This document shows positions 1 to 9,506 of a stretch of DNA of 9,506 nt, one piece after another (within the stretch, counting starts at the first letter, position 1; each line of letters starts with the position of its first letter). Below the pieces are notes generated by a model. It worked only from the letters and a program-made list of their open reading frames with translations, was not told where the DNA came from and ran no database searches. Origin of the DNA: Octopus sinensis (Eukaryota); assembly GCF_006345805.1 (NCBI RefSeq), contig NW_021827911.1:1-9506 (forward strand). The letters are read 5' to 3'. A program made the translations under genes and the position numbers.

Positions 1-3000
1 TGCCGGCAGATTGTTCCATGCTTGCGTGTGTATGGAGGGGAGAAATCAGGTGTAGTGTTGGTGAATCTCAGGAAAATGGAGTTTTGAAGGATGCAGTGTT
101 CAGACAATTAACAACTGATGCCGGCAGTTTGTTCCATGCTTGCGTGTATGGAGGGGAGGAATCAGGTGTAGTGTTCGTGAATCTCAGGAAGAATGGAAGT
201 TTTGAAGGATGCAGTGCTCAGACAATTAACAACTGATGCCTGCAGTTTTGTTCCATGCTTGATTGTATGGAGGGCAGGAAATCAGGTGTAGTGTTGGTGA
301 ATCTCAGGAAGAATGGAAGTTTTGAAGGATGCAGTGCTCAGACACATAACAACTGATGCCGGCAGGTTGTTCCATGCTTGAGTGTGTAGGAGGGGAGGAA
401 ATCAGGTGTAGTGTTTGAATCTCAGGAAGAATGGAAGTTTTGAAGGATGCAGTGCTCAGACAATTAACAACTGATGCCGGCAGTTTGTTCCATGCTTGAG
501 TGTGTATGGAGGGGAGGAATCAGGTGTAGTGTTGGTGAATCTCAGGAAGAATGGAAGTTTTGAAGGTTGCAGTGCTCAGACAATTAACAACTGATGCCGG
601 CATTTGTTCCATGCTTGCTGTGTATGGAGGGGAGAAATCAGGTGTAGTGTTGGCGAATCTCAGGAAGAATGGAAGTTTTGAAGGATGCCGTGCTCAGACA
701 ATTAACGACTGATGCCGGCAGTTTGTTCCATGCTTGCGTGTGTATGGAGGGAGGAAATCAGGTGTAATGTTGGTGAATCTCAGGAAGAATGGAGTTTTGA
801 AGGATGCAGTGCTCAGACAATTAACAACTGATGCCGGCAGTTTGTTCCATGCTTGCGTGTGTATGGAGGGGAGGAAATCAGGTGGTAGTGTTGGGTGATC
901 TCAGGAAGAATGGAAGTTTTGAAGGATGCAGTGCTCAGACACATTAACAACTGATGCCGGCAGTTTTGTTCCATGCTTGAGTGTGTATGGAGGGGAGGAA
1001 ATCAGGTGTAGTGTTGGTGAATCTCAGAAGAATGGAAGTTTTGAAGGATGCAGTGCTCAGACAATTAACAACTGATGCCGGCAGTTTGTTCCATGCTTGA
1101 GTGTGTATGGAGGGGAGAAATCAGGTGTAGTGTTGGTGAATCTCAGAAGAATGGAAGTTTTGAAGGATGCAGTGCTCAGAACAATTAACAACTGATGCCG
1201 GCAGTTTGTTCATGCTTGAGTGTGTATGGAGGGGAGGAAATCAGGTGTACGTTGTTGGTGATCTCAGGAAGAATGGACGTTTTGAAGGTTGCAGTGCTCA
1301 GACAATTAACAACTGATGCCGGCATTTGGTTCCATGCTTGCGTGTGTATGGAGGGGAGGAAATCAGGTGTAGTGTTGGCGAATCTCTCAGAAGAATGGAA
1401 GTTTTGAAGGATGCAGTGCTCAGACAATTAACAACTGATGCCGGCAGTTTGTTCCATGCTTGAGTGTGTATGGAGGGGCGGAAATCAGGTGTAGTGTTGG
1501 TGAATCTCAGGAAGAATGGAAGTTTTGAAGGATGCAGTGCTCAGACAATTAACAACTGATGCCGGCAGTTTGTTCCATGCTTGCGTGTGTATGGAGGGAG
1601 GAAATCAGGTGTAGTGTTGGTGAATCTCAGGAAGAATGGAAGTTTTGAAGGATGCAGTTCTCAGACAATTAACAACTGATGCCGGCAGTTTGTTCCATGC
1701 TTGCGTGTGTATGGAGGGGAGGAAATCAGGTGTAGTGTTGGTGAATATCAGGAAGAATGGAAGTTTTGAAGGATGCAGTGCTGCAACCACTAACAACTGA
1801 TGCCGGCAGTTTGTTCCATGCTTGAGTGTGTATGGAGGGGAGGAAATCAGGTGTAGTGTTGGTGAATCTCAGGAAGAATGGAAGTTTTGAAGGATGCAGT
1901 GCTCAGACAATTAACAACTGATGCCAGCAGTTTGTTCCAAGCTTGAGTGTGTATGGAGGGGAGGAAATCAGGTGTAGTGTTGGTGAATCTCAGGAAGAAT
2001 GGAAGTTTTGAAGGATGCAGTGCTCAGACAATTAAACTGATGCCGGCAGTTTTGTCCTATGCTTGAGTGTGTATGGAGGGGAGGAAATCAGGTGTAGTGT
2101 TGGTGAATCTCAGGAAGAATGGAAGTTTTGAGGATGCAGTGCTCAGACAATTACAACTGATGCCGGCAGTTTGTTTCATGCTTGAGTGTGTATGGAGGGG
2201 AGGAAATCAGTGTGTAGTGTTGGTGAATCACAGGAAGAATGGAAGTTTTGAAGGATGCAGTGCTCAGACAATTAACAACTGATGCCGGCAGTTTGTTCCA
2301 TGCTTGAGTGTGTATGGAGGGGAGGAATCAGGTTGTAGTGTTGGTGAATCTCAGGAAGATGGAAGTTTTGAAGATGCAGTGCTCAGACAATTAACACTGA
2401 TGCCGGGCATTTTGTTCCATGCTTGAGTGTGTATGGAGGGGAGGAAATCAGGTTTAGTTTTGGTGAATCACAGGAAGAATGGAAGTTTTGAAGGATGCAG
2501 TGCTCAGACAATTAACAACTGATGCCGGCAGTTTGTTCCATGCTTGAGTTTGTATGGAGGGGAGGAAATCAGGTGTAGTGTTGGTGAATCTCAGGAAGAA
2601 TGGAAATTTTGAAGGATGCAGTGCTCAGACTATTAACAACTGATGCCGGCAGTTTGTTCCATGCTTGCGTGTGTATGGAGGGGAGGAAATCAGGTGTAGT
2701 GTTGGTGAATCTCAGGAAGGATGGAAGTTTTGAAGGATGCAGTGCTCAGACAATTAACAACTGATGCCGGCAGTTTGTTCCATGCTTGAGTGTGTATGGA
2801 GGGGAGGAAATCAGGTGTAGTGTTGGTGAATCTCAGGAAGAATGGATGTTTTGAAGGATGCAGTGCTCAGACAATTGACAACTGATGCCGGCAGTTTGTT
2901 CCATGCTTGCGTGTGTATGGAGGGGAGGAAATCAGGTGTAGTGTTGGTGAATCTCAGGAAGAATGGAAGTTTTGAAGGATGCAGTGCTCAGACAATTAAC

Positions 3001-4138
3001 AACTGATGCCGGCAGTTTGTTCCATGCTTGAGTCTGTATGGAGGGGAGGAAATCAGGTGTAGTGTTGGTGAATCTCATGAAGAATGGAAGTTTTGAAGAA
3101 TGCAGTGCTCAGACATTAAACACTGATGCCGGCAGTTTGTTCCATGCTTGCGTGTGTATGGAGGGGAGGAAATCAGGTGTAGTTTTGGTGAATCTCAGGG
3201 AGAATGGAAGTTTTGAAGGATGCAGTGCTCAGACAATTAACAACTGATGCCGGCAGTTTGTTCCATGCTTGCGTGTGTATGGAGGGGAGGAAATCAGGTG
3301 TAGTGTTGGTGAATCTCAGGAAGAATGGAAGTTTTGAAGGATGCAGTGCTCAGACAATTAACAACTGATGCCGGCAGTTTGTTCCATGCTTGCGTGTGTA
3401 TGGAGGGGAGGAAATCAGGTGTAGTGTTGGTGAATCTCAGGAAGGATGGAAGTTTTGAAGGATGCAGTGCTCAGACAATTAACAACTGATGCCGGCAGTT
3501 TGTTCCATGCTTGAGTGTGTATGGAGGGGAGGAAATCAGGTGTAGTGTTGGTGAATCTCAGGAAGAATGGAAGTTTTGAAGGATGCAGTGCTCAGACAAT
3601 TAACAAACTGATCCGGCAGTTTGTTCCATGCTTGCTTTGGTATGGAGGGGAGGAAATCAGGTGTAGTGTTGGTGAATCTCAGGAGGATGGAAGTTTTGAA
3701 GGATGCAGTGCTCAGACAATTAACAACTGATGCCGGCAGTTTGTTCCATGCTTGCGTGTGTATGGAGGGGAGGAAATCAGTGTAGTGTTGGTGAATCTCA
3801 GGAAGAATGGAAGTTTTGAAGGATGCAGTGCTCAGACACCATTAACAACTGATGCCGGCAGTTTTGTTCCATGCTTGAGTGTGTATGGAGGGGGGAAATC
3901 AGGTGTAGTGTTGGTGAATCTCAGGAAGGATGGAATTTTGAAGGATGCAGTGCTCACAACAATTAACAACTGATGCCGGCAGTTTGTTCCATGCTTGAGT
4001 TGTATTAGGGGAGGAAATCAGGTGTATTGTTGGTGAATCTCAGGAAGAATGGAAGTTTTGAAGGATGCAGTGCTGCAACCACTAACAACTGATGCCGGCA
4101 GTTTGTTCCATGCTTGAGTGTGTATGGAGGGGAGGAAA

Positions 4139-4258
4139 TCAGGTGTAGTGTTGGTGAATCTCAGGAAGAATGGAAGTTTTGAAGGATGCAGTGCTGCAAC
4201 CACTAACAACTGATGCCGGCAGTTTGTTCCATGCTTGAGTGTGTATGGAGGGGAGGAA
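4139..4258 (-). repeat. Representative subtype B monomer (GTGCT-GCAACCAC-TAAC in place of GTGCT-CAGACAAT-TAAC)
   Basis: An 8-bp block differing at 5 positions, seen in 14 monomers (15, 34-37, 40, 43, 47-50, 53, 56, 72). The minus-strand frame reads SVVSGCSTASFK instead of SVVNCLSTASFK. Confidence 0.95.
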
Positions 4259-4622
4259 ATCAGGTGTAGTGTTGGTGAATCTCAGGAAGGATGGAAGTTT
4301 TGAAGGATGCAGTGCTGCAACCACTAACAACTGATGCCGGCAGTTTGTTCCATGCTTGAGTGTGTATGGAGGGGAGGAAATCAGGTGTAGTGTTGGTGAA
4401 TCTCAGGAAGAATGGAAGTTTTGAAGGATGCAGTGCTGCAACCACTAACAACTGATGCCGGCAGTTTGTTCCATGCTTGAGTGTGTATGGAGGGGAGGAA
4501 ATCAGGTGTAGTGTTGGTGAATCTCAGGAAGAATGGAAGTTTTGAAGGATGCAGTACTCAGACAATTACCAACTGATGCTGGCAGTTTGTTCCATGCTTG
4601 CGTGTGTATGGAGGGGAGGAAA

Positions 4623-4742
4623 TCAGGTGTAGTGTTGGTGAATCTCAGGAAGGATGGAAGTTTTGAAGGATGCAGTGCTCAGACAATTAACAACTGATGC
4701 CGGCAGTTTGTTCCATGCTTGAGTGTGTATGGAGGGGAGGAA
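4623..4742 (-). mobile_element. Representative monomer (subtype A): remnant of a non-LTR retrotransposon (CR1/L2-group LINE) ORF2 C-terminus with stop codon; the same fragment is present in every monomer
   Basis: The minus strand translates to FLPSIHTQAWNKLPASVVNCLSTASFKTSILPEIHQHYT*. This resembles the conserved tail after the RT domain of CR1/L2-group ORF2 proteins (SF.P....WN.LP..V....S...FK..L). Recognised by motif only; no database search was run. Confidence 0.75.
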
Positions 4743-6896
4743 ATCAGGTGTAGTGTTGGTGAATCTCAGGAAGAATGGAAGTTTTGAAGGATGCAGTGCT
4801 GCAACCACTAACAACTGATGCCGGCAGTTTGTTCCATGCTTGAGTTTTATGTTGAGTGTTCTGTGGACTTGGTAGCTGATTGGAATGGAGGAAATCAGGT
4901 TTAGTGTTGGTGAACTCAGGAAGAATGGAAGTTTTGAAGGATGCAGTGCTCAGACAATTAACAACTGATGCCGGCAGTTTGTTCCATGCTTGCGTGTGTA
5001 TGGAGGGGAGGAAATCAGGTGTAGTGTTGTGAATCTCAGGAAGGATGGAAGTTTTGAAGGATGCAGTGCTCAGACAATAACAACTGATGCCGGCAGTTTG
5101 TTCCATGCTAGAGTGTGTATGGAGGGGAGGAAATCAGGTGTAGTGTTGGTGAATCTCAGGAAGAATGGAAGTTTTGAAGGATGCATGCTGCAACCATACA
5201 ACTGATGCCGGCAGTTTGTTCCATGCTTGCGTGTGTATGGAGGGGAGGAAATCAGGTGTAGTGTTTGGTGAACTCAGGAAGGATGGAAGTTTTGAAGGAT
5301 GCAGTGCTCAGACAATTAACAACTGATGCCGGCAGTTTGTTCCATGCTTGCGTGTGTAATGGAGGGGAGGAAATCAGGTTAGTGTTTGAATCTCAGGAAG
5401 AATGGAAGTTTTGAAGGATGCAGTGCTCAGACAATTAACAACTGATGCCGGCAGTTTTTCCATGCTTGAGTGTGTATGGAGGGGAGGAAATCAGGTGTAG
5501 TGTTGGTGAATCTCAGAAGGATGGAAGTTTTGAAGGATGCAGTGCTCACAACAATTAACAACTGATGCCGGCAGTTGTTCCATGCTTGAGTGTGTATGGA
5601 GGGGAGGAAATCAGGTGTAGTGTTGGTGAATCTCAGGAAGAATGGAAGTTTTGAAGGATGCAGTGCTGCAACCCTACAACTGATGCCGGCAGTTTGTTCC
5701 ATGCTTGAGTGTGTATGGAGGGGAGGAAATCAGGTGTAGTGTTGGTGAATCTCAGGAAGAATGGAAGTTTTGAAGGATGCAGTGCTGCAACCACTAACAA
5801 CTGATGCCGGCAGTTTGTTCCATGCTTGAGTGTGTATGGAGGGGAGGAAATCAGGTGTAGTGTTGGTGAATCTCAGGAAGATGGAAGTTTTGAAGGATGC
5901 AGTGCTGCAACCACTAACAACTGATGCCGGCAGTTTGTTCCATGCTTGAGTGTGTATGGAGGGGAGGAAATCAGGTGTAGTGTTGGTGAATCTCAGGAAG
6001 AATGGAAGTTTTGAAGGATGCAGTGCTGCAACCACTAACAACTGATGCCGGCAGTTTGTTCCATGCTTGAGTGTGTATGGAGGGGAGGAAATCAGGTGTA
6101 GTGTTGGTGAATCTCAGGAAGAATGGAAGTTTTGAAGGATGCAGTGCTCAGACAATTAACAACTGATGCTGGCAGTTTGTTCCATGCTTGCGTGTGTATG
6201 GAGGGGAGGAAATCAGGTGTAGTGTTGGTGAATCTCAGGAAGGATGGAAGTTTTGAAGGATGCAGTGCTCAGACAATTAACAACTGATGCCGGCAGTTTG
6301 TTCCATGCTTGAGTGTGTATGGAGGGGAGGAAATCAGGTGTAGTGGTGGTTGAATCTCAGGAAGAATGGAAGTTTTGAAGGATGCAGTGCTGCAACCACT
6401 AACAACTGATGCCGGCAGTTTGTTCCATGCTTGAGTGTGTATGGAGGGGAGGAAATCAGGTGTAGTGTTGGTGAATCTCAGGAAGAATGGAAGTTTTGAA
6501 GATGATGCAGTGCTCAGACATTAACAACTGATGCCGGCAGTTTGTTCCATGCTTGCGTGTGTAGATGGAGGGGAGGAAATCAGGTGTAGTGTTGGTGAAT
6601 CTCAGGAAGGATGGAAGTTTTGAAGGATGCAGTGCTCAGACAATTAACAACTGATGCCGGCAGTTTGTTCCATGCTAGAGTGTGTATGGAGGGGAGGAAA
6701 TCAGGTGTAGTGTTGGTGAATCTCAGGAAGAATGGAAGTTTTGAAGGATGCAGTGCTGCAACCACTAACAACTGATGCCGGCAGTTTGTTCCATGCTTGC
6801 GTGTGTATGGAGGGGAGGAAATCAGGTGTAGTGTTGGTGAATCTCAGGAAAAATGGAAGTTTTGAAGGATGCAGTGCTCAGACAATTAACAACTGA

Positions 6897-9506
6897 TGCC
6901 GGCAGTTTGTTCCATGCTTGCGTGTGTATGGAGGGGAGGAAATCAGGTGTAGTGTTGGTGAATCTCAGGAAGAATGGAAGTTTTGAAGGATGCAGTGCTC
7001 AGACAATTAACAACTGATGCCGGCAGTTTGTTCCATGCTTGCGTGTGTATGGAGGGGAGGAAATCAGGTGTAGTGTTCGTGAATCTCAGGAAGAATGGAA
7101 GTTTTGAAGGATGCAGTGCTCAGACAATTAACAACTGATGCCGGCAGATTGTTCCATGCTTGAGTGTGTATGGAGGGGAGGAAATCAGGTGTAGTGTTGG
7201 TGAATCTCAGGAAGAATGGAAGTTTTGAAGGATGCAGTGCTCAGACAATTAACAACTGATGCCGGCAGTTTGTTCCATGCTTGAGTGTGTATGGAGGGGA
7301 GGAAATCAGGTGTAGTGTTGGTGAATCTCAGGAAGAATGGAAGTTTTGAAGGATGCAGTGCTCAGACAATTAACAACTGATTCCGGCAGTTTGTTCCATG
7401 CTTGAGTGTGTATAGAGGGGAGGAAATCAGGTGTAGTGTTGGTGAATCTCAGGAAGAATGGAAGTTTTGAAGGTTGCAGTGCTCAGACAATTAACAACTG
7501 ATGCCGGCAGTTTGTTCCATGCTTGCGTGTGTATGGAGGGGAGGAAATCAGGTGTAGTGTTGGCGAATCTCAGGAAGAATGGAAGTTTTGAAGGATGCAG
7601 TGCTCAGACAATGAACAACTGATGCCGGCAGTTTGTTCCATGCTTGCATGTGTATGGAGGGGAGGAAATCAGGTGTAGTGTTGGTGAATCTCAGGAAGAA
7701 TGGAAGTTTTGAAGGATGCAGTGCTCAGACAATTAACAACTGATGCCGGCAGTTTGTTCCATGCTTGCGTGTGTATGGAGGGGAGGAAATCAGGTGTAGT
7801 GTTGGTGAATCTCAGGAAGAATGGAAGTTTTGAAGGATGCAGTGCTCAGACAATTAACAACTGATGCCGGCAGTTTGTTCCATGCTTGAGTGTGTATGGA
7901 GGGGAGGAAATCAGGTGTAGTGTTGGTGAATCTCAGGAAGAATGGAAGTTTTGAAGGATGCAGTGCTCAGACAATTAACAACTGATGCCGGCAGTTTGTT
8001 CCATGCTTGAGTGTGTATGGAGGGGAGGAAATCAGGTGTAGTGTTGGTGAATCTCAGGAAGAATGGAAGTTTTGAAGGATGCAGTGCTCAGACAATTAAA
8101 ACTGTAAGGCTGATGCCGGCAGTTTGTTCCATGCTTGAGTGTGTATGGAGGGGAGGAAATCAGGTGTAGTGTTGGTGAATCTCAGGAAGAATGGACGTTT
8201 TGAAGGTTGCAGTGCTCAGACAATTAACAACTGATGCCGGCAGTTTGTTCCATGCTTGCGTGTGTATGGAGGGGAGGAAATCAGGTGTAGTGTTGGCGAA
8301 TCTCAGGAAGAATGGAAGTTTTGAAGGATGCAGTGCTCAGACAATTAACAACTGATGCCGGCAGTTTGTTCCATGCTTGAGTGTGTATGGAGGGGCGGAA
8401 ATCAGGTGTAGTGTTGGTGAATCTCAGGAAGAATGGAAGTTTTGAAGGATGCAGTGCTCAGACAATTAACAACTGATGCCGGCAGTTTGTTCCATGCTTG
8501 CGTGTGTATGGAGGGAGGAAATCAGGTGTAGTGTTGGTGAATCTCAGGAAGAATGGAAGTTTTGAAGGATGCAGTTCTCAGACAATTAACACTGATGCCG
8601 GCAGTTTGTTCCATGCTTGCGTGTTGTATGGAGGGTAGGAAATCAGGTGTAGTGTTGGTGAATATCAGGAAGAATGGAAGTTTTGAAGGATGCAGTGCTG
8701 CAACCACTACCACTGATGCCGGCAGTTTTGTTCCATGCTTGAGGGTGTATGGAGGGGAGGAAATCAGGTGTAGTGTTGGTGAATCTCAGGAAGAAGGAAG
8801 TTTTGAAGGATGCAGTGCTCAGAACAATAACAACTGATGCCAGCAGTTTGTTCCAAGCTTGAGTGTGTATGGAGGGGAGGAAATCAGGTGTAGGGTTGGT
8901 GAATCTCAGGAAGAATGGAAGTTTTGAAGGATGCAGTGCTCAGACAATTAACAACTGATGCCGGCTGTTTGTTCTATGCTTGAGTGTGTATGGAGGGGAG
9001 GAAATCAGGTGTAGTGTTGGTGAATCTCAGGAAGAATGGAAGTTTTGAAGGATGCAGTGCTCAGACAATTAACAACTGATGCCGGCAGTTTGTTCCATGC
9101 TTGAGTGTGTATGGAGGGGAGGAAATCAGGTGTAGTGTTGGTGAATAACAGGAACAATGGAAGTTTTGAAGGATGCAGTGCTCAGACAATTAACAACTGA
9201 TGCCGGCAGTTTGTTCGATGCTTGAGTGTGTATGGAGGGGAGGAAATCAGGTGGAGTGTTGGTGAATCTCAGGAAGAATGGAAGTTTTGAAGGATGCAGT
9301 GCTCAGACAATTAACAACTGATGCCGGCAGTTTGTTCCATGCTTGAGTGTGTATGGAGGGGAGGAAATCAGGTATAGTGTTGGTGAATCACAGGAAGAAT
9401 GGAAGTTTTGAAGGATGCAGTGCTCAGACAATTAACAACTGATGCCGGCAGTTTGTTCCATGCTTGTGTGTGTATGGAGGGGAGGAAATCAGGTGTAGTG
9501 TTGGTG
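6897..9506. repeat. Second, partial copy of the 57-monomer unit (monomers 58-79, matching about 1-2586)
   Basis: Shares the TTCGTG, GGTTGC, GGCGA, GGACG, GGGGCGG, CAGTTCTC, AATATC, subtype B, GCCAGC, TCCAAG and AATCAC variants, and the A/C allele string of monomers 1-21. Confidence 0.93.

Follow-up and report, generated by a model that had tools for sequence, protein, structure and literature searches.

This study concerns the tandem array that forms the whole of an unplaced Octopus sinensis contig (NW_021827911.1; G000:C4382 in a 2.72-Gb assembly), hereafter the window, 9,506 bp long and without flanks on either side. The array is built from a 121-bp monomer that, judged by its sequence, derives from the 3' end of a long interspersed nuclear element (LINE), and a block of monomers at one end of the window is echoed, 57 monomers later, at the other. 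We consider that this echo is probably real and represents a low-copy tandem duplication of a block of monomers, made by out-of-register repair or unequal crossing-over. The window divides as follows.

1 to 9506, LINE-sense strand minus: tandem array of 78.5 copies of the 121-bp monomer, equal to the entire contig.
1 to 2522: first block copy, monomers 1-21, indel-noisy in 17 of the 21.
2523 to 6896: monomers 22-57, the part of the 57-mer seen once, with all 11 monomers bearing the 77G variant and 12 of the 14 of subtype B.
6897 to 9506: second block copy, monomers 58-79, placed 57 monomers later and mostly clean.

Fourteen rare substitutions are common to monomers lying 57 apart. When the order of the monomers was shuffled 3000 times, the count at the best lag averaged 3.3 with a maximum of 7, and no shuffle reached 14. 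The segment score at this lag is 65.5, against a null maximum of 23.6 in 200 shuffles. The mean substitution distance per monomer falls to 1.67 at lag 57, as against 4.5 for random pairs, and the copies of the unit are thus closer to each other than are the monomers inside it, as expected of a higher-order repeat (HOR). Alignment of the first copy (1-2522) with the second (6897-9442) gives 2473 matches, 31 substitutions and 52 gap events. The resulting difference of 1.2% is confounded by read error; copies of an orangutan HOR discussed below range from 0.25 to 0.81% (PMC12428378). The monomers of the octopus unit are ~96% alike, random pairs differing at ~4.5 of 121 sites, and it lacks the strongly diverged monomer types of alpha satellite, in which monomers differ by tens of percent within a unit.

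A first-pass annotation had already listed rare variants paired at a constant 57-monomer offset. All 13 of its motifs are present at that offset, displaced by at most ~5 bases, though four are not strictly pairs: GGTTGC and GGCGA occur four times, AATCAC and a G deletion three times. Its reading of the common A/C site as CCAAACCCAAACACCAAAAAA in monomers 1-21 and again in 58-78 is borne out at 21/21 positions. The period of 6897 bp that it predicted is about 20 bp too short: offsets run from 6902 to 6920 bp, with a mode of 6917 among two-copy k-mers, corresponding to 57 monomers in the decomposition. The discrepancy stems from a surplus of ~29 bases in monomer 41 and from indels in many monomers. 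Its cautious core, a long multi-monomer duplication of which ~1.4 visible periods are too few to tell two copies from many, holds; the LINE origin, a second duplication nested in the unit, and the possible misjoining of two reads or haplotypes had been overlooked.

The nested duplication, of 13 monomers, lies in the part of the unit that is seen once, together with an anomalous stretch in monomer 41:

3612 to 5205: first copy of the nested 13-monomer tandem duplication, monomers 31-43, lag 13.
5206 to 6775: second copy, monomers 44-56, whose monomers pair with those 13 earlier.
4846 to 4885: non-monomer stretch inside monomer 41, net gain 29 bases, unique in the assembly; a real insertion and read noise are both possible.

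The segment score at lag 13 is 46.6, again well above the null maximum of 23.6. An echo at lag 6, between monomers 5-6 and 11-12, falls short of significance by itself, with a score of 8.5 against a null mean of 11.6. Monomer 67 contains ~7 extra bases (8095-8110) absent from monomer 10, probably read noise.

Block duplications are not peculiar to the window. When segment scores were compared with 200 shuffles in each of eight arrays of the family, clear lags exceeded the null maximum in four: the window, L003 (lag 19), L011 (lag 11) and the array on contig C674 (lags 20, 70, 22 and 48). Signals were marginal and at short lags in L002 and L009, and no lag passed the null maximum in L008 or L006. 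The C674 array (G000:C674 8787-19561, loci L015 and L016) comprises ~89 monomers, among which duplications of 20/22, 48 and 70 monomers are nested; a fragment of a different LINE reverse transcriptase cuts it off at one end. One block is present there three times, and four variants (45T, 96A, 41T and 23G) occur in the second and third copies and not in the first, a distribution that points to real successive duplication. The assembled arrays thus contain block duplications of 11, 13, 19, 20/22, 48, 57 and 70 monomers; long block duplication, in one sister array exceeding 57 monomers, is a general trait of the larger arrays.

The window's own block pattern is confined to one contig as assembled, in the manner of local, low-frequency HORs, although the assembly may be collapsed. 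Four markers of the unit have no match in the whole assembly outside this contig, and among 12 further loci and 17 additional sequences none shares more than 32 rare 25-mers with the window at a single offset.

Could the echo be an artifact? In an assembly misjoin, two noisy reads, from one locus or from two haplotypes, would have been overlapped at the wrong monomer register, doubling a single real 2.6-kb block. The state of the contig lends itself to this idea: it is an unplaced 9.5-kb piece of pure satellite, with patches of indels in 39 of 78 monomers that look like partly corrected long-read error, and monomers ~96% alike make false overlaps easy. The ~1% substitution difference between the copies could be allelic, and the middle of the contig, where a join would fall, is where the 13-mer and the anomalous stretch of monomer 41 are found. 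Read reuse does occur in this satellite family: the redundant contigs C13108 (L002) and C11372 (L003/L004) have at least 4.8 kb of flank and their first 41 monomers in common, and 33 of 76 indel tokens are identical between them. In the window, by contrast, the two copies have only 1 of 58 indel tokens in common and must come from independent read segments; a single read pasted twice is thereby ruled out. The three-copy hierarchy of C674 shows, moreover, that long duplications are real in the family. On balance we regard a misjoin as unlikely, if the most serious of the alternatives.

Public sequencing runs bear on the same question. Parts of the window are found in 14 of the 24 runs listed, none of which holds half of its words (largest share, 0.32). 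Comparison of positions 8831-8980 with run contigs at 99% likeness identified one informative stretch:

8945 to 8980: monomer 74/75 stretch with variants 8T and 17T, matched exactly by short-read contigs of run X1 (depth 271.8).

Run X1 may come from the assembly's own sample or from another individual. The 8T+17T haplotype is real and, next to a depth of 25000 for the modal word of the run, much rarer than the satellite in general; single-copy depth is uncalibrated, so that these figures give no copy number. The depth of 271.8 is well above that of the lowest X1 contig listed (18.9) and, if 18.9 is the single-copy depth, fits more than one copy, a point against a misjoin.

The same stretch speaks to another possibility raised in the first-pass annotation, namely that a concatemer of a 6.9-kb circle, extrachromosomal or produced by rolling-circle amplification, would look the same. 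Satellites can shed circles, and a direct repeat devoid of flanks is what a concatemer read would give. Copies of one circle should be identical, whereas 12 substitutions within 21 indel-free monomers are private to one copy; all lie in copy 2 (copy 1 is noisy), and one is confirmed in the short-read contigs. The likeness claimed for a concatemer is therefore doubtful on this count. Furthermore, a read of more than one period would require an amplified library, and duplications of this kind also occur in sister arrays whose flanks anchor them in chromosomes. A circle strikes us as very improbable.

More difficult to weigh is the idea that the window samples a homogeneous, many-copy 57-mer HOR, centromeric or not, which the assembler has collapsed to one unit with overlapping ends. 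The length of the contig, one period plus an overlap of ~2.6 kb reaching toward both ends, is what such a collapse would leave. The derived subfamily to which the window belongs is under-assembled, in that a mere 98 exact matches in the assembly contrast with short-read contig words of depth 25000, and the 8T+17T word, found once in the assembly, reaches 271.8 in X1. The internal sub-repeats also resemble those of the cascading 58-mer of orangutan (PMC12428378). Set against this, the four unit markers find no second place in the assembly, and the lags differ from one long array to the next. The marker amounts to at most ~1.1% of the modal depth, when a satellite composed entirely of the unit should give at least 1.75%, and 25000 looks like a ceiling; any single-copy depth of at least 10 would translate into fewer than 30 copies. 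Finally, the copies differ by up to ~1%, compared with 0.25% among the canonical orangutan copies (PMC12428378). We therefore hold a many-copy repeat to be distinctly unlikely. A more specific version, in which the contig is a collapsed cascading 57-mer super-repeat, with the 13-mer nested inside, in a young, non-centromeric satellite built around a LINE stop codon, is in our judgment about as unlikely. Were it true, the genome would have kept every stage, from empty site through insertion, dimer and array to super-repeat, and HORs of primate size would be seen to arise neutrally, fast and without a centromere.

As for the centromeric flavor that the first-pass annotation had given the repeat, no test supports it: the monomer matches a LINE 3' end, the anchored arrays of the family measure 0.1-11 kb and lie in segmental duplications, and nothing points to a centromere. 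Membership among centromeric HORs is accordingly not supported.

Several observations weigh against a low-copy block duplication and should be set beside those that favor it. The contig is unplaced, consists purely of satellite and is patched with errors; this, together with the read reuse seen in L002 and L003, is what leaves the misjoin its share of probability. The match between copies extends toward the two ends of the contig without showing a boundary, the behavior expected of a collapsed many-copy unit. Since 8T is missing from copy 1, it may not tag every unit. More weakly, the 5A+19A pair has no cover in all four runs concerned (X1, X5, X2 and X14) and the monomer-41 stretch none in three of three contig runs (X1, X3 and X2), holes of a kind that prove nothing; contig builders drop low-depth branches next to very deep ones. 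The mechanism, moreover, is read from the anatomy of the arrays alone.

As to the origin of the monomer, one copy is delimited in the window as follows:

7276 to 7403, minus strand: a single monomer, read in LINE sense, together with the 7-bp direct repeat that bounds it (plus-strand CATGCTT at 7276-7282 and 7397-7403); the stop codon TGA is at 7308-7306.

The monomer comprises the last 95 nt of open reading frame 2 (ORF2), the stop codon and 23 nt of the 3' untranslated region (UTR). A search of the assembly with a single-monomer locus as query returned 1999 first-look candidates, of which 40 were scored and 14 fetched. All 14 are dispersed LINE copies, lying on many large contigs, that match the monomer at 94% over 128 bases. 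Each contains one monomer, terminates in a common 3' end that bears an (ATT)n tail and is variably truncated on the 5' side; shared 5' extents range from ~13 to 3240 bases. The ends of the monomer coincide with two AAGCATG heptamers of the parent LINE, 121 bases apart and both intact in 12 of the 14 copies. The longest copy fetched (L035) has an ORF2 with matches to RVT_1 (4e-32) and Exo_endo_phos_2 (9.2e-11). By these sequence matches the parent is identified as a young endonuclease/reverse-transcriptase non-LTR (long terminal repeat) retrotransposon, and the satellite as its derivative. The C-terminal motif of the parent ORF2 resembles that of CR1-type LINEs, a clade to which the parent may belong; neither the 40 homologs nor the Atlas supplied a clade name. 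A coding role was considered for the 58-residue frames of the array and rejected: they are the end of the LINE ORF2 read across monomer junctions and have no Pfam match below E 0.2.

The assembly preserves what appear to be successive states of a single insertion. Most arrays have common flanks that are ~87-97% identical and extend for 3.4 kb or more to one side and as far as 4.4 kb to the other; anchored arrays lie inside segmental duplications, on C29, on C27 and on unplaced contigs. The LINE piece is missing from three loci (L026-L028), all of which read ...GATATAATT|GTAATCG; at the filled loci a 5'-truncated LINE tail is flanked by two copies of TATAATT (7 bp). The former are therefore empty sites and the latter a target-site duplication. 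Within the duplicated block, array sizes estimated from block length are graded, at about 1, 1, 1, 3, 3, 3, 5, 11, 12, 16, 16 and 32 monomers and, for the larger arrays, at least 42 in one and about 56, 58, 67, 75 and 89 in the others. LINE alleles are kept in the edge monomers, and derived alleles are found in the interior monomers represented by the window. Of the exact assembly matches to the derived type, 94 of 98 fall on four unplaced contigs, as do 39 of 40 to subtype B. Given this near-confinement, the window probably represents interior sequence from one or two large arrays that are under-assembled. Runs labelled organism B likewise show the derived-type words at high depth, so that the expanded subfamily is common to two organism labels.

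Two further loci have flanks unlike those of the main block: L023 (5356-6090; G000:C28 near 1.875 Mb), in which the 121-bp unit is repeated six times within a LINE copy, and L024 (5506-6005; G000:C29 near 33.5 kb), in which it is repeated four times. The unit was therefore either amplified at other insertions or copied there as a tandem, which suggests repeated seeding of the satellite from the 3' end of the parent LINE.

Other features of the duplicated block may be recorded here. On C29 two arrays lie in a ~30-kb stretch duplicated at an offset near 62 kb, among further nested duplications; the surrounding mosaic (G000:C29 668000-762000; L047-L054, L006, L007) has offsets near 9, 16, 47 and 62 kb, is 92-97% identical and contains many retroelement pieces. 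The insertion target of the LINE (L026-L028) is itself an older dispersed repeat, with older relatives in L029, L030 and L032 at 73-78%. Additional tandem repeats in the block (L004 7464-9035, L006 7948-9941, L007 7526-8343) consist of GA-rich units of ~105-135 bp and of a 171-bp unit present two to three times. A 67-monomer array borders another LINE-like 3' end near position 2313 of L025 (G000:C29 near 1.094 Mb). As for host genes, the open reading frames of at least 130 residues listed for the block resemble, by eye, retroelement pieces or simple repeats.

One could envision the following course of events. A 5'-truncated LINE copy inserts in an older repeat and duplicates 7 bp of target site, a step that empty and filled sites display directly. 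The first dimer might then form by slippage or by microhomology-mediated end-joining at the heptamers, and the array would grow through misaligned repair or crossing-over, each exchange copying a block of arbitrary length. The 13-mer duplication would have occurred beforehand or within the block, and the 57-mer spanning it would have been copied at least once, reaching a number somewhere between two and roughly fifteen. Such duplication requires no function.

Neither LINE-derived satellites nor 58-mer repeats are new. The former include chicken HinfI (CR1 partial ORF2 and 3' UTR), Phodopus PROsat (L1 ORF2) and the cetacean common satellite (L1 3' end) (review, PMC9659126), to which the octopus satellite is akin in deriving from the end of a LINE ORF2 and its 3' part. 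Unlike these, the octopus monomer is wholly LINE, with ends set by a 7-bp direct repeat of a parent that is young (94% alike); the octopus genome also contains, side by side, the empty site, the single copy and arrays that are growing. In HinfI, judging by the title of its description, the CR1 piece is embedded in a larger unit, and the L1 match of PROsat covers a small region. With respect to higher-order structure, maize and Arabidopsis satellites are described as forming local, low-frequency HORs over ~10 kb by out-of-register repair or unequal crossing-over, with an average of ~4 monomers and 3 occurrences and no link to centromere function (PMC13011684). The octopus 57-mer is likewise local, has few occurrences and shows no centromere link, and differs from these in having a unit of 57 monomers with a nested 13-mer and in belonging to an animal, LINE-derived satellite. 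The closest match in size is the cascading 58-mer superHOR of alpha satellite on the orangutan Y, which is centromeric, with 67 copies, 46 of them at 0.25% divergence, and with related units of 45-84 monomers that have inner repeats (PMC12428378); local-nested HORs are also described by HiCAT (PMC10053651). The octopus unit is comparable to these in monomer number and in the repetition of sub-blocks inside the unit. Unlike the orangutan unit, it shows 1.4 periods, a difference of up to ~1% that includes errors, and no centromere evidence. In short, the octopus unit behaves like a local HOR and, to go by the similarity of its monomer, is a LINE-derived satellite. No description of this satellite was found in the literature searched, a weak negative given the thin coverage of subscription journals and Repbase.

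Taken by itself, the 57-mer is ordinary satellite turnover, and it is the context that is useful. Empty sites coexist in one genome with solitary LINE tails, with paralogous blocks whose arrays range from 3 to ~89 monomers, with two more short arrays at insertions unrelated to these, and with nested block duplications. Given accurate long reads, these would together offer a natural time series for the birth of a satellite at a microhomology and for the rise of long higher-order units, processes usually argued from their end states.

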